From IMG/VR virus record IMGVR_UViG_3300020042_006612, positions 1 through 24,463 of that record: a stretch of 24,463 nt of DNA; one strand, given 5' to 3'. Numbering within the stretch: the first letter of the stretch is position 1; every line of letters starts with the position of its first letter. A program made the position numbers and the translations under genes. This document shows positions 3,014 to 9,149 of this stretch, in pieces. The stretch is from a virus (lineage: Duplodnaviria > Caudoviricetes). The notes below the pieces were generated by a model that saw only the letters and a list, made by a program, of their open reading frames with translations, searched no databases and had not been told where the DNA came from.

Positions 3014-3201
3014 CCAAAACCCAACTAATAAACCTAACCCGCCGAACGATTAAAAAGTTTGACTCTCAAGCCGCATTTGCACGAGAGATAGATATAGGCT
3101 GCGACGAGCTAAGCAACTTTCTGAGTGGGCATCGGAACCCACCAGCAAGACTATTGGCCTATATCGGCTACAAACCAAAAACGATTTACGAGAGGATTTG
3201 A
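3010..3201 (+). CDS. Cro/XRE-like helix-turn-helix regulator
   Basis: 63 aa with SQAAFAREIDIGCDELSNFLSGHRNP as the HTH pattern. Confidence 0.8.
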   Translation: MTKTQLINLTRRTIKKFDSQAAFAREIDIGCDELSNFLSGHRNPPARLLAYIGYKPKTIYERI

Positions 3202-3238
3202 GAATGAACGTTGCTCCTTCCTGCGATCTGGTGCCATC

Positions 3239-4000
3239 ATGAAAATGAAGCACTTAGATTTATTCAGTGGCATAGGCGGGTTTGCTTTAGCAGCAAGGTG
3301 GGTAAATATAGACACGATTGCGTTCTGTGAGATAGATCCATTTTGCCAGAAAGTATTGGCTAAAAACTTCCCAAACGTACTTATTCATAGCGACATTAAA
3401 ACTTTAAATGGTGAAGACTTTGCAGGAATTGATATTATTACAGGCGGATACCCGTGCCAGCCTTTTAGCGTTGCCGGAAGCCAAAAAGCGCAAGATGATT
3501 CACGCCACCTCTGGCCGGAAATGCGCAGAATTATTGCACAAGCAAAACCCACTTGGGCAATTTGCGAAAACGTTTATGGTCACATCGCATTGGGATTGGA
3601 CTGTGTGTTGCACGACATGGAAGCCATTGGCTACTCCTGCCAACCGTTTGTTATTCCAGCTCTCAGCACAGGTGCGGACCATAACAGGGAGCGAGTTTTT
3701 ATTGTGGCCAACTCCACAAGCAATGGATGCCATGAAAGCACGCCCACCGGAAGCAATGGCAAGACAAATGAATACGGCACGCAAGGGGCGCAAGAAAATA
3801 GCCACAATGAAGGACGCGGCCGTATACGGTTTGGAGTGGACTGGGAAGGCAATTCGATTGGGCGATGGGGAATTAAGCCCCCTGCGCTTAGAGTGGATGA
3901 TGAATTACCCAATAGGATGGACCGAAATAAGTCGTTAGGCAATGCGATTGACCCAATGGTGGCATATGAGATTTTCAGGGCAATCATAACAACAGTCTAA
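3239..4000 (+). CDS. DNA cytosine-C5 methyltransferase, catalytic (alpha) polypeptide
   Basis: Motif I DLFSGIGGF, IV GYPCQPFS, VI ENV, VIII HNRERVF and X LGNAI are present; motif IX is not seen in this frame. The start is more likely ATG 3239 or 3245 than GTG 3125. Confidence 0.93.
   Translation: MKMKHLDLFSGIGGFALAARWVNIDTIAFCEIDPFCQKVLAKNFPNVLIHSDIKTLNGEDFAGIDIITGGYPCQPFSVAGSQKAQDDSRHLWPEMRRIIAQAKPTWAICENVYGHIALGLDCVLHDMEAIGYSCQPFVIPALSTGADHNRERVFIVANSTSNGCHESTPTGSNGKTNEYGTQGAQENSHNEGRGRIRFGVDWEGNSIGRWGIKPPALRVDDELPNRMDRNKSLGNAIDPMVAYEIFRAIITTV
3408..3938 (+). CDS. Nested +1-frame methyltransferase beta polypeptide (target-recognition region and motif IX)
   Basis: 176-aa ORF lying wholly inside the MTase gene. 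It contains LWPTPQAMD and LSPLRLEWMMNYPIGWT (motif IX-like). The exact start is uncertain. Confidence 0.8.
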   Translation: MVKTLQELILLQADTRASLLALPEAKKRKMIHATSGRKCAELLHKQNPLGQFAKTFMVTSHWDWTVCCTTWKPLATPANRLLFQLSAQVRTITGSEFLLWPTPQAMDAMKARPPEAMARQMNTARKGRKKIATMKDAAVYGLEWTGKAIRLGDGELSPLRLEWMMNYPIGWTEISR

Positions 4001-4006
4001 TATTTC

Positions 4007-4035
4007 TTGACACCAATCCCAGTCAATACTAATAT
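4007..4035 (+). promoter_or_regulatory. Sigma70-like promoter
   Basis: TTGACA(4007-4012)-17-TAATAT(4030-4035). The predicted start near 4041 coincides with the first stem of the structured region. Confidence 0.7.
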
Positions 4036-4039
4036 TTAA

Positions 4040-4485
4040 TTATCTGCGGGGGTAAAACCTTGTGCCTCCTCCTTCCCTTTTTGGAGGAGGCCGCAGTCCG
4101 AAAGGGCAAGAGATAAAAAGGGCGGACTAGCGAGGGTACAAAAGGGTAAATCAAGGCATTCCTGCCAAAATTTCCCTGCTTTTTTATTTTGATAGCCCTA
4201 GTTTCGTCGTTTTTTACTTGCTGGAAGATATGTCCACTTGATCACTCACCGCCCAGCATTTTACGCCGAAGAAGAGGACTGCAAGCGGCAAACTGAGTTC
4301 GAGAGCCAGAACAGTGCAGCACTGATCAACATCGGGAAAGCTGGCAAGGTTGGTTAATGTTGAATATGCCAATCCACCATGATGACGGACGGCTCCGAGA
4401 GAGTTGGCGTCGGTGAAAGATCCTTGCTCATTAAATTGGGTTAGGGTTCTTTCACCGTTAATTCAGGACTCACCAAAAGAGTTAG
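4040..4485 (+). ncRNA. Putative large structured RNA or replication-origin element upstream of the helicase
   Basis: About 450 nt with no convincing ORF. Stems include 4064-4072/4083-4091, a GAAA tetraloop hairpin at 4096-4107, a long hairpin at about 4115-4215, and 4411-4420/4448-4457. Confidence 0.55.
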
Positions 4486-4494
4486 GGGGAAGCA

Positions 4495-5982
4495 GTGGAA
4501 CTAAGACAGCATCAAATCGAAGCAGTAGAGCAGATCCGACAAGCCATGCGGGAGGGCCACAAGCGAATCATGCTAGGCGCAAACGTATCATTCGGAAAAA
4601 CCATTGTGGCGGCTCACATGATGATGGAAGCACATGCCAAGGGAAAGCGAGGCGTTTTCATCTGCGACAGGATTCAGCTTGTAGAGCAAACGATTGATAA
4701 ATTTGAACAGGTTGGATTGAATTGTGGGGTTATTCAAGGTATCCACGAAAAGACTAATCCATCGGAACCGATTCAAATAGCAAGCATTCAAACATTGGCG
4801 CGCAGAAAGATGATGCTTGATTTTGACTTTGCGATAGTTGACGAAGCGCATACGCACTATGAAAGCCTAACCAAAATGATGGAGGCATTTAACAATGTGC
4901 CATTCATTGGATTGAGCGCTACACCATATTCAAAAGGACTTGGAAAACATTACTCAAAATTAATAGTTCCGATAACAACCAGGGAGCTTTTGGAAAAAGG
5001 GTATCTTTGCCCTGTTAAATATTACGCTGGCGAACAGCCGGACCTTGAGACAATAAAAATAAAAAGAGACTCACAGGGGATAGCTGATTACGATCCAGAC
5101 CAATTGTCACTTGCAATGCAAAAACCAAAGTTAATTGGTGATGCAGTTGAGACATGGAAAAAGCTTGGCGAAGACTCACAAACAATAGCATTCTGCCCGT
5201 CAATTGCACACTCCAGAGGTTTGGCTCAAGCATTCTGTGATGCTGGCGTAAAGGCAATGCACGTTGATGCATACACCGATTCCGAAATACGCAAAGATTT
5301 ATACAGACGACATAATGAAGGTGAATTCAAAATATTATCCTGTTCATCACTGTTAAATACTGGCTACGACTCGCCAAGCACCAGATGCATAATTGATTGC
5401 TACCCCACAAAATCTATCATCAGGTATGTCCAGAGGGTTGGTAGGATCATGAGAATATTTGAAGGAAAAACTCATGCAATTTATTTGGATCACAGCTCAA
5501 ATGTGTGTAGACATGGATTTGCTGAAGATATAGTACCCGAGAGCCTTCATGATGGAATTAAAGAATATTCCGAGCAGTCATTAACCAAAGAAAACAAAGC
5601 GAAAGAGCCAATAGTTTGCGAGTGCTGCCAATCAATAATGATTGCCGGAAAATGCGGAACTTGCGGACATGAGATAAAGCGCAAAAAATCAAATCTGGAG
5701 CAGGTTAATGGCGAACTAAAAGAGGTTGTTACAGTTAACCAGGACTTCTATTCAGGGCTTCTATTTCACGCTAAAGAGAAAGGCTTTTCATCTGGCTGGG
5801 CAAAGCACAAATACAAAGAGAAGTTCGGATCATGGCCGACAGGAGCAAAAGAAATACCCATAAAATCAGATACGGTTGCTGGATACATTAAGCACTTGAA
5901 TATCAAATACGCTCATTCCAAAAAGAAAAATGAAGCAAAAGGAAAAGAGACGATTGATAAAATTATGGGGATGTTTCAATGA
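4495..5982 (+). CDS. Superfamily 2 (DEAH/ResIII-like) helicase with C-terminal Zn ribbon
   Basis: Q motif LRQHQ, Walker A variant ANVSFGKT, DEAH, SAT, TGYD, QRVGRIMR and CxxC..CxxC. GTG start with an AGGGGG RBS. Confidence 0.93.
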   Translation: MELRQHQIEAVEQIRQAMREGHKRIMLGANVSFGKTIVAAHMMMEAHAKGKRGVFICDRIQLVEQTIDKFEQVGLNCGVIQGIHEKTNPSEPIQIASIQTLARRKMMLDFDFAIVDEAHTHYESLTKMMEAFNNVPFIGLSATPYSKGLGKHYSKLIVPITTRELLEKGYLCPVKYYAGEQPDLETIKIKRDSQGIADYDPDQLSLAMQKPKLIGDAVETWKKLGEDSQTIAFCPSIAHSRGLAQAFCDAGVKAMHVDAYTDSEIRKDLYRRHNEGEFKILSCSSLLNTGYDSPSTRCIIDCYPTKSIIRYVQRVGRIMRIFEGKTHAIYLDHSSNVCRHGFAEDIVPESLHDGIKEYSEQSLTKENKAKEPIVCECCQSIMIAGKCGTCGHEIKRKKSNLEQVNGELKEVVTVNQDFYSGLLFHAKEKGFSSGWAKHKYKEKFGSWPTGAKEIPIKSDTVAGYIKHLNIKYAHSKKKNEAKGKETIDKIMGMFQ

Positions 5983-7910: not shown

Positions 7911-9149
7911 ATGGGCTGGTTATCATCATCAAAAACGCTTGTTGATGCGTGCAATTCGCTTGCAGGGTGGGCTGGGGCTGGTAGCGGATCCGTCACAATC
8001 ACGGATGCACCGGCATTATCTGGACAGGCTCAGGCATTACGAGTTTTATCCTCTGGTGCGCCGGGCGCAAACTATCAGATAACGCGTGACCTTACTCCAA
8101 CAGACTACGCAACAGGCTGGTATTCTCAGTGGGTTAGATTCCCTAATCTTGCAACAGCGAAAAATACCGGCCATTTTTTATGGCGCACTCCGTTTTCGTC
8201 GAATGGGTATTATCAGCGATTGGTTGATATTAACAGCCTTCCGGAAGAGACAATTGCATCAAACAACGAATGGATCAACATCATGTGGCTCGGCGGTGAA
8301 ATGAATGCTGCTGGCGGCGCTCCAGTATATGCATCAAATGCCACATGGTTTGCCAAGCTCTATCTGCGTACAACCAACATATCAACAGGTGGCGCTATAG
8401 ATTTTGGTGCTCTTTATGCGAAAGTAAAACAATCAAGGCCCGCTGTTGTTATTTCCTTTGATGATTCCAATGACACAGATTACACGATTGCATTCCCTTA
8501 TTTGCAGGCGCGAGGTCTAAAAGCAACAACTTACACGATTGCAGGGCAGATAAATCAGGCCAATTTTTTGAATTCGGCACAGCTTTTGGAGCTTAGAGCT
8601 GCGGGCTGGACGGTGGGGACTCATGGTGATTTCAGCTATACAACACTGACAAACCAAGAGCTGCGTGATGACCTAACATTGAACAAGAACTTTCTAACTG
8701 GGCTTGGCATAGACAGCTGGACTCACGTCAGTTATCCCTTGGGCGATTTTAATCCAAACACGGTTTCAACAATTAAATCAATGGGGTTTAAAACTGGCAG
8801 AACCACTATTTCACGCGCATACCCAATAACCCCAGAGCGCGGATATTTTCATCTGCAGGGTGAGGGCTCAAGTGCGTGGGCTAATGCAGCAGCAGGTATA
8901 GCTGCTGTGGACTCGGCTATAGCAAACGGTGGAACTTTGATAATATTTACTCACAGATTACAGCCAGGAGTAAGCCCAACGCATACAGACACCACACTCT
9001 GGCAAACTGTAATAGATTACATTGCAGCACAGCGCAACGCAGGGGCAATAGATGTTTTGACGATGGAAGAGCTTTATTCTGCATCTGCTGGTAATACTAT
9101 TTTGTCAGAATCTAATCAAGGTTTGGTAAAATATGGATTGGTGTTATAA
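7911..9149 (+). CDS. Polysaccharide deacetylase (CE4/NodB) with N-terminal beta-sandwich domain
   Basis: ISFDD (motif 1), GWTVGTHG, SYPLG (motif 3) and IIFTH (motif 5); GAGG RBS. Confidence 0.85.
   Translation: MGWLSSSKTLVDACNSLAGWAGAGSGSVTITDAPALSGQAQALRVLSSGAPGANYQITRDLTPTDYATGWYSQWVRFPNLATAKNTGHFLWRTPFSSNGYYQRLVDINSLPEETIASNNEWINIMWLGGEMNAAGGAPVYASNATWFAKLYLRTTNISTGGAIDFGALYAKVKQSRPAVVISFDDSNDTDYTIAFPYLQARGLKATTYTIAGQINQANFLNSAQLLELRAAGWTVGTHGDFSYTTLTNQELRDDLTLNKNFLTGLGIDSWTHVSYPLGDFNPNTVSTIKSMGFKTGRTTISRAYPITPERGYFHLQGEGSSAWANAAAGIAAVDSAIANGGTLIIFTHRLQPGVSPTHTDTTLWQTVIDYIAAQRNAGAIDVLTMEELYSASAGNTILSESNQGLVKYGLVL

Follow-up and report, generated by a model that had tools for sequence, protein, structure and literature searches.

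RNA-based origins, guide-bearing RNAs and large phage RNAs

The R-loop origins of phage T4, oriF and oriG, which work with the SF2 helicase UvsW, combine a promoter with a persistent RNA-DNA hybrid and occur several to a genome, and we know of no need in them for a folded RNA or an internal guide. ColE1 has two G runs (G6 runs at 928 and 1175 of NC_001371), the first of which has its pairing partner in the template strand at the second. The IS110 bridge RNA and omegaRNA/HEARO are guide-bearing RNAs, and put RNA provides a precedent for control of transcription in cis. To our knowledge, the start of replication in lytic phages such as the Pakpuna- and Otagoviruses, and in many uncultured aquatic phages, is largely unmapped.

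RNA II of ColE1/pMB1 is described as a promoter-driven, folded RNA of several hundred nt that forms a persistent hybrid at its 3' end and so primes replication, the trigger of such hybrids being called speculative there even for ColE1 (PMC5043065). The MRB origins, from marine Gammaproteobacteria, are described as plasmid-borne, with a 465-nt RNA II, no Rep gene and an abundant 68-nt antisense RNA I that has its own promoter and terminator (PMC3035462). ARRPOF, PAGEV and GEBRO are listed as motifs of 223-349 nt linked to plasmid replication, and GOLLD and ROOL as RNAs found near tRNAs in prophages (PMC5737381). ARRPOF is further described as 255 nt long, with helices P1-P8 and four pseudoknots, and HYER ribozymes as cutting DNA via a short pairing site (PMC12990946).

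The DNA analyzed here (the window) is a whole phage record of 24,463 nt, by its look probably a partial genome, and the gap upstream of its helicase gene holds a conserved, base-paired and pseudoknotted element of about 270 bases (core about 270-300 nt), likely an RNA, as judged from related loci. With ColE1 RNA II, this element would share a promoter, a folded transcript of several hundred nt and a persistent hybrid at the 3' end; with MRB RNA II, the character of an origin transcript without a Rep gene; and with the T4 origins, a promoter, a persistent hybrid and several copies per genome. A short variable segment that matches a neighboring DNA site inside a conserved scaffold is common to the element, bridge RNA, omegaRNA/HEARO and HYER, while GOLLD, ROOL and OLE are, like it, large covarying phage RNAs, one paralogue of the element lying beside tRNA clusters. 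However, the element resides in phages, beside ordinary initiators, and its guide is a variable 8-16-mer, whereas the guide of ColE1 is a G run, which here pairs inside the RNA (pseudoknot PK1). It is set apart from the plasmid-borne MRB origins by giving no plasmid hits and, in a consensus scan, no sites for an antisense RNA I; in contrast to T4, the helicase is not tied to it; in contrast to the guide-bearing RNAs, it is accompanied by no cognate recombinase or nuclease gene, and its guide is internal and of the same sense as the 3' flank. GOLLD, ROOL and OLE measure 550-830 nt, and the element differs from them also in its flanking repeat and in giving no Rfam match. ARRPOF, PAGEV and GEBRO, whose models we take to be present in Rfam 15, differ in that Rfam gave no match for the window or for 23 loci, and in that the descriptions cited above for these motifs mention no self-matching guide.

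ColE1 gave no match to models of the element, even with filters off; by eye, its stem-GGCTG-AAC-G-run resembles P4 plus linker of the element in one clade. Rfam detects RNAI in ColE1 itself and found none in the window or the homologous loci. Three plasmid sequences, p09022A, p23023 (50,000 of 52,527 nt) and pPA52 (5,800 of 6,281 nt), yielded neither a match to the models nor an Rfam hit and, having no Rfam hit, say nothing about MRB, PAGEV or ARRPOF.

The non-coding gap and its sequence-only reading

The window encodes a P22-like portal, coat and terminase, an Erf/exonuclease/SSB block, a methylase (3125-4000) and, on the plus strand, an SF2 helicase (4495..5982; ResIII plus Helicase_C, phrog_16), which is a neighbor of the element but not an obligate partner. 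An earlier reading from the sequence alone had placed a single promoter-driven, multi-domain RNA of about 450 nt before the helicase gene, either as its attenuator leader or partner or as a primer that replaces an initiator and primase. A novel structured non-coding element, most likely acting as plus-strand RNA, has been borne out by compensatory changes and by the lack of an Rfam family, and an origin or primer role is still the guess that we favor; the single unit, the tie to the helicase and the replacement of initiator and primase found no support. The pseudoknots and the covarying direct repeat are absent from that reading.

The gap (4001-4494, 494 nt) is indeed the largest between the 36 called genes, the runner-up measuring 275 nt. 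The sigma-70-type promoter-like site at its start (TTGACA-17-TAATAT, 4007..4035, plus strand; predicted start near 4040) is present, with 10/12 consensus matches, but a scan gave 16 such sites against 12.4 expected. All proposed stems lie where they had been placed on the plus strand: TTATCT/AGATAA (4040 and 4111), CTGCG/CGCAG (4044 and 4092), GCCTCCTCC/GGAGGAGGC (4064 and 4083), a GNRA hairpin (4096), GGCGGACTAG/CTAGTTTCGTC (4121 and 4198), the hairpin GGCATTCCTGCC (4155), TGCTGG/CCAGCA (4219 and 4253), the hairpin CGGCTC..GAGTTG (4390) and CGGTGAAAGA/TCTTTCACCG (4411 and 4448). The gap region folds better than shuffles (z -2.75; 1/100 shuffles equally good). A plus-strand preference holds for separate domains (4040-4116, z -2.69 versus -1.36 on the minus strand; 4380-4490, -2.92 versus -1.51) but vanishes over 4040-4490 entire (-2.13 versus -2.11). 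The most conserved part, 4219-4380, does no better than shuffles (z +0.48) because it is pseudoknotted.

The longest stop-free frames in the gap reach 51, 36 and 48 codons on the plus strand and 53, 70 and 82 on the minus strand. No iteron-like repeat family lies within the gap, ARAGORN found no tRNA or tmRNA in the window, and an Rfam scan of the window placed no family over the RNA at gathering score or at E<=10. A consensus scan inside 4040-4494 gave no minus-strand promoter or terminator, as an antisense RNA I would have.

Architecture of the conserved core

Among relatives, 4219-~4487 is the sole conserved stretch, so that the first two domains of the proposed 450-nt unit (4040..4116 and 4115..4215) form a variable leader outside the family core. 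The core, read on the plus strand, opens with P1 (4219-4224/4253-4258), which encloses two near-invariant motifs, GATATGTC (4227-4234) and CACTCACCG (4243-4251); their invariance is partly built in, because the search patterns impose some motifs, and in L361, L362/L370 and L390, which were found by other means, the first motif varies. Next, 4265..4319 contains P3 (4265-4268/4286-4289), read from the sequence, and the pseudoknot PK1 (4279-4283/4315-4319), together with a GAAGA motif and the segment CTGAGTT (4293-4299), which may pair with ACTCA (4244-4248) or AATTCAG (4460-4466), although neither of these pairings covaries. P4 (4305-4309/4341-4345), P5 (4322-4326/4331-4335) and P6 (4349-4354/4368-4373) come next, the loops of P5 and P6 forming a predicted kissing interaction (4326-4332/4357-4363). 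The 3' part holds repeat copy 1, the putative guide CTCCGAGAGAGTTGGCG (4393..4409), in a weak local hairpin; the long terminal hairpin P8 (4411..4457), which is rich in G-U and carries a U-tract on the 3' side; and repeat copy 2, the putative target CACCAAAAGAGTTAGGG (4471..4487), with the opposite strand of which copy 1 is predicted to pair. The likeness of a GATATGTCC motif to group I introns or RNase P was ruled out by topology and by the lack of an Rfam hit.

Covariation and constraint

Covariation between lineages is seen for the helices and the pseudoknot, and it extends to members found later. RNAalifold predicted 24 pairs from 26 sequences, 21 of them with two-sided change. In a 40-pair pseudoknotted model of 22 sequences, paired cells made up 91.2% versus 67.9% in shuffled alignments, all six pairs of the P5-P6 kissing loop showed two-sided change, and covariation reached 0.628 versus 0.194 (0/500; the shuffles ignore relatedness) and at most 0.144 in slid controls. 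An alignment-free test, in which the 5' arms of 18 representatives were matched either to their own 3' arms or to those of other members, gave 0/20000 for each of P1, P3, PK1, P4, P5, the kissing loop and P6, with counts of 5 for P8 and 33 for P2. In nine later-found members, P1, P3, PK1 and P4 again gave 0/20000 and P5 gave 1119, and the kissing loop was not retained in the Pseudomonas-phage group. GTC/GAC and ACTCA/TGAGT pairings could form in almost every member, yet neither the 18 representatives nor the 22-sequence model gave a covariation signal for them, and they stay unproven.

The core is also under strong constraint by comparison with the helicase gene in a 95%-identical relative (run X2). 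Over 4035-4799 this relative differs by 39 letters, 37 of them listed: 17 in the leader, two in the core (4219-4480), one at position 4485 and 17 in the helicase gene (4495-4799). The contrast between core and helicase has a Fisher p of 0.0016, or at worst 0.013, should the core contain the two unlisted changes.

It is very unlikely that the structure acts as single-stranded DNA, for example by signaling where a displaced strand is to be primed, or that it is a decayed gene. Covariation alone is said not to separate RNA from single-stranded DNA (PMC5737381), but a promoter-like site stands right at the 5' end, the loops are of GNRA and UUCG type, the pseudoknot helices are short, and the covarying helices contain 28 G-U cells versus three A-C, as expected for the plus strand. 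A decayed gene is ruled out by the lack of a long frame and by fewer changes in the core than in coding DNA. We hold with high confidence that the element is an RNA, transcribed from the sigma-70-like promoter and folding as it is made.

Distribution in phages

The closest helicase, L001 (74%), has an upstream region related to that of the window, and motifs common to both seeded pattern scans for relatives. An iterated nhmmer profile over the collected loci gave 113 hits from uncultured phages, which fall into 25 clusters; many of the hits are duplicates of a contig. A genome collection yielded 11 pattern matches with one true homologue (L324, in a metagenome bin), and this single case thus provides no evidence of a host or prophage for the phage of the window. 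A metagenome scan gave ten matches, nine of them true, and a further pattern scan 38 loci, of which 15 were true and all previously found. BLAST added homologues in seven cultured Vibrio phage records and in Pseudomonas myoviruses, and vB_PpuM-Amme-3, a phage of P. putida KT2440, is another carrier. Used as queries, the M5.1 copy matched 185 records (29 over 80% of its length) and the PAK_P2 copy 165 (125 over 80%), counts inflated by duplicate GenBank/RefSeq entries and by a small number of matches due to chance.

With a covariance model built on the 5' domain of the element, copies of the Otagovirus type scored 41-51 bits (E<=2e-11, by a rough calibration). The model found a single copy in Vibrio phage 1.206.O; Vibrio phage 1.148.O gave no match, and neither did PAK_P3, so that the published ncRNAs of PAK_P3 are not this element. 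Two copies were present in each of five Otago- and Pakpunavirus genomes of 92-99 kb (phiPsa374, M5.1, Bitten, PAK_P2 and YS35), 33-36 kb apart in circular distance. Well-studied Pseudomonas phages (Pakpunavirus, Otagovirus) thus carry two copies each that no annotation records. The sequencing runs listed included no RNA holder.

No Rfam family covered the element in 20 homologous loci (E<=5) or in three Pseudomonas loci, and three queries against 72,556 plasmid records gave no match (best E 0.8). No published description was found; the element could be listed, uninterpreted, in the supplements of PMC10690425 or PMC5737381, and its core motifs are absent from six supplementary files of PMC10690425. 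It is apparently an undescribed but real RNA family with a covarying self-matching segment, and even without a mechanism it adds an uncatalogued large pseudoknotted RNA to more than 100 cultured-phage records.

The paralogues bring up a further reading, in which the element would be an abundant stand-alone structural RNA of the GOLLD, ROOL or OLE kind that acts in trans, its repeat serving for processing, dimerization or circularization. The promoter-like site of its own is in keeping with this, as are the two paralogues per genome, one of which heads a tRNA cluster in phiPsa374, in Bitten and, by position, in PAK_P4, a setting like that reported for GOLLD and ROOL. This reading is nonetheless quite improbable, as a direct repeat cannot pair with itself and has no internal partner, and the RNA-seq annotation of PAK_P4 has a single sRNA at 91,948-92,050 (PMC5563952), away from the gaps 28,952-29,393 and 89,162-89,512, the candidate places of the element. 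That sRNA1 was accordingly rejected as a record of the element, and a 13-nt 'sRNA' annotated inside the YS35 copy is without a stated basis.

A covarying direct repeat

A direct repeat of about 8-16 nt, first seen by eye, flanks P8, and its two copies change in step between lineages: AGCGTCATGAG occurs twice in phiPsa374, ATTCTGGATAG twice in M5.1 and ATCTGCATG twice in the second PAK_P2 copy. The spacing between copies is 73-88 nt in the main group and about 97-109 nt in the Pseudomonas phages. The repeat was assessed with one sequence per lineage (18 families), the abundant marine clade being kept apart. Similarity to the own flank scored 175 versus 140.6 +/- 3.9 when permuted (0/200000), symmetric segments scored 159 versus 93.4 +/- 6.0 (0/100000), and the own flank was strictly best in 13 families and best or tied in 16. 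Because the repeat had been noticed on these 18 sequences themselves, the 11 later-found members constitute the real test; they scored 107 versus 82.3 +/- 5.0 (0/100000). In this set the own flank was strictly best in only 3/11 and best or tied in 6/11, because paralogues share guides. The marine clade (five representatives) gave a weak signal, 32 versus 26.6 (2473/100000). The PAK_P2 paralogues L505 (88,390) and L502 (28,513) carry a nearly identical guide, ATCTGCAT, whereas the guides of the phiPsa374 and M5.1 paralogues differ within each genome.

The copies of the window differ at three sites, each with G in copy 1 and A in copy 2. Mismatches within the 18 repeats comprised 22 of this type, one of the reverse type and 22 others, versus 147 to 77 for the two G/A types in foreign pairs. 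Such mismatches would be tolerable as G-T wobbles solely in a pairing of copy 1, as RNA, with the strand complementary to copy 2. Half of the cases (11/22) are one recurring column, however, and the bias was not replicated in the later set (10 versus 12), in which three of the 11 segments lay off the by-eye repeat and most repeat cores are exact.

No same-strand complement of the repeat occurs within 300 nt (own score 0.06 above foreign), which rules out an antisense system of the C4/CI type, and no convergent promoter for an antisense partner was detected (scores 6-9, control 6-9), leaving a convergent antisense RNA without a promoter signal. Since a direct repeat cannot pair with itself, we take the template strand of the DNA to be the likely partner, and copy 1 of the element probably pairs with its own template strand at copy 2. 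A natural guide-target pair that covaries means that one compensatory-mutation experiment in cultured phages can test the guide idea.

Gene context and independence of the helicase

The proposal that the element is a cis-regulatory leader or a dedicated partner of the SF2 helicase fits the window, L001, L349 and L296, where the helicase gene lies directly downstream, and it fits a leader arm of the window that can pair over the ribosome site of the helicase gene. As a function of the family, however, it is refuted by the scatter of helicases among carriers and seems hardly credible elsewhere: a helicase relative occurs in only eight of 29 carrier records and in none of the six complete ones; the helicase gene lies upstream of the element in L345, L359, L368, L372, L377 and L385; family models found no element before the helicases of L002-L004 (48-52% identity to that of the window); and Vibrio phage 1.148.O has none. 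A different GC-structured non-coding stretch, of about 400 nt, precedes the L003 helicase (L003:2580-2990) and also occurs in L002 and L004, before the helicase or before a preceding 150-160-aa ORF; it is unrelated to the family and matches no model.

Neighbors of the element vary and include terminase genes, HNH genes, initiators, tRNA clusters and RNA ligase. As had been claimed, no initiator or primase was found among the 36 ORFs of the window, a 24,463-nt and probably partial contig. The scan of carriers covered 133 neighboring ORFs and 116 of the 296 ORFs of eight larger records, those presumed structural or already scanned being omitted. Initiator- or primase-like hits came from Vibrio 1.206.O, L349, L388, G001, G005, G007, G024 and G025; G008 gave none among 19 ORFs submitted. 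Several carriers thus encode initiator- or primase-like genes, and the idea that the RNA replaces them finds no support, nor does a ColE1-type primer replicon without initiator or primase. The helicase scatter and the carriers' own initiators and primases together indicate that the element is neither a helicase leader nor a general primase substitute.

Reverse transcriptases were absent from the 36 window ORFs, the 133 neighbors and the 116 ORFs of the larger records, and retron, DGR and group II intron RNAs were rejected for want of an adjacent one. HEARO/omegaRNA was likewise set aside, an HNH gene lying directly downstream in only three of 25 neighborhoods (L361, L365 and L378) and the neighborhoods listed containing no IscB or TnpB. 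RNA ligase or RtcB genes occur in the carriers G007 (L400:7443-8417), G024 (L405:13447-14667), L455 and L502, and near one copy in Pakpuna- and Otagoviruses, where they may represent unrelated tRNA repair.

A possible accessory origin and its alternatives

The helices, PK1, the covarying direct repeat without a same-strand partner and the independence of the helicase are established by sequence comparison. Our best guess, a tentative one, is an accessory origin primed by a guide-anchored R-loop. Transcription would start at the sigma-70-like promoter, at a frequency of passage into the core that the 4040-4215 leader would set, and the RNA would fold while being made. The polymerase would melt the DNA of copy 2, which follows copy 1 at a distance of about 75-105 nt, and the folded core would present copy 1 to the template strand, giving a lasting hybrid. 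Trimming of this hybrid by RNase H or by the core itself could yield a 3' end or an opened A+T-rich stretch, at which host or phage replication proteins might load, alongside the ordinary initiator or primase of the phage. This proposal draws on the geometry of the guide and on the precedents of ColE1 RNA II and MRB RNA II.

Base composition agrees with an origin in part. The 40 nt from copy 2 average 0.66-0.68 A+T versus 0.54 locus-wide, but the window's own stretch downstream of copy 2, at 0.44, is not A+T-rich. The cumulative GC-skew minimum of M5.1 falls at 57,093, with an element at 57,095, and the detrended minimum of G008 falls inside the element. In three Pseudomonas phages, each of the six copies has a lower GC skew before it than after it, but those Pseudomonas copies that were checked lie where divergent genes meet, and skew shifts at such junctions in any case. 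Overall, skew does not mark out the locus: it rises across the element in only eight of 22 other loci, and in a codon-corrected origin fit 13 element positions ranked 0.40 on average (0.5 expected), two of them in the top 5%. The lack of a plasmid match speaks against an origin, since a self-sufficient replicon might be expected there, and so does the frequent presence in carriers of an initiator, primase or helicase of their own.

Pairing of guide and template could equally serve termination, nicking or mobility. With regard to nicking and mobility, the core may be a ribozyme or a binder of a nuclease or recombinase, copy 1 aiming it at the opposite strand of copy 2, so that DNA would be nicked for replication by rolling circle or recombination, or the element itself would be mobilized. 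Purine-rich motifs that are invariant and unpaired, in a core with several pseudoknots, would suit this reading, and the patchy presence, the shifting gene context, the HNH gene directly after the element in a few neighborhoods and the example of the HYER ribozymes would suit it as well. Yet no nuclease, transposase or reverse transcriptase travels with the element, Rfam offers no ribozyme match, and the target lies at a fixed distance with shared flanking letters, unlike a random insertion site; we regard this reading as unlikely.

Control of transcription in cis, by which the RNA would ride the polymerase and copy 1 would oust the nascent 3' end from its hybrid with the copy-2 template, is about equally unlikely. 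It would set the 3' end of the RNA or switch termination and antitermination of downstream genes, and it accounts for the missing same-strand partner, for the position of copy 2 where the polymerase would stand once P8 has folded, and for the usual place of the element at the head of a co-directional gene run. In L388, however, the next genes face the element; another promoter-like site comes after copy 2 in both YS35 and PAK_P2; and so large and invariant a core seems excessive for the task.

A broader formulation, more doubtful than the accessory origin itself, is that of a widespread class of phage RNA with a programmable internal guide that acts, without a dedicated protein, on the DNA strand of its own locus, either as an RNA-guided origin or as a DNA-nicking, primer-making ribozyme. 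If the guide is programmable, the element would amount to a compact RNA-only DNA-targeting module.

The variable leader and further observations

In Pseudomonas phages, a TTGACA-type promoter-like site stands immediately 5' of P1, which identifies 4040-4215 of the window as an add-on leader. Among main-group members with enough flank, 11 of 17 have promoter-like sites scoring at least 9 within 330 nt upstream of the core, a count made without a shuffle control. The multi-stem domain (4040..4116, plus strand) aligns only loosely to L001 and is missing from loci in which promoter and core adjoin. One leader pair is kept by a two-sided change, T4067C together with A4088G, in contigs of runs X2 and X3. 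The long interrupted hairpin with its terminal T run (4115..4215, plus strand; z -2.09) drew no call in a terminator scan and is a possible attenuator of read-through into the core; by eye, comparable leaders with a hairpin plus T run occur in L345 and L390. The leader arm 4063-4084 can pair with 4473-4494, covering copy 2 and the helicase ribosome site, at a predicted -20.9 kcal/mol versus -18.7 for its own hairpin, and may form a translational switch specific to the window. The promoter cassette (3997-4041) also fronts unrelated sequence in other contigs (e.g. run X4), and close relatives diverge just 5' of it, at a module boundary.

Many marine-clade contigs (L258-L321) end within about 700 nt downstream of the element, either at assembly breaks in a shared element or at genome ends. 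In the marine phage contig L113, a glutamine riboswitch (RF01739; L113:107-155) that scores 46.4 bits, more than the gathering score, precedes a short ORF and lies about 130 nt 5' of the element. Elsewhere in the window, the terminase genes are preceded by a gene (7911-9149) for a protein of 412 aa that has a polysaccharide deacetylase domain, and a 39-nt imperfect inverted repeat within 2724-2822 holds divergent promoter-like sites and separates leftward recombination genes from rightward early genes, as a possible operator region.
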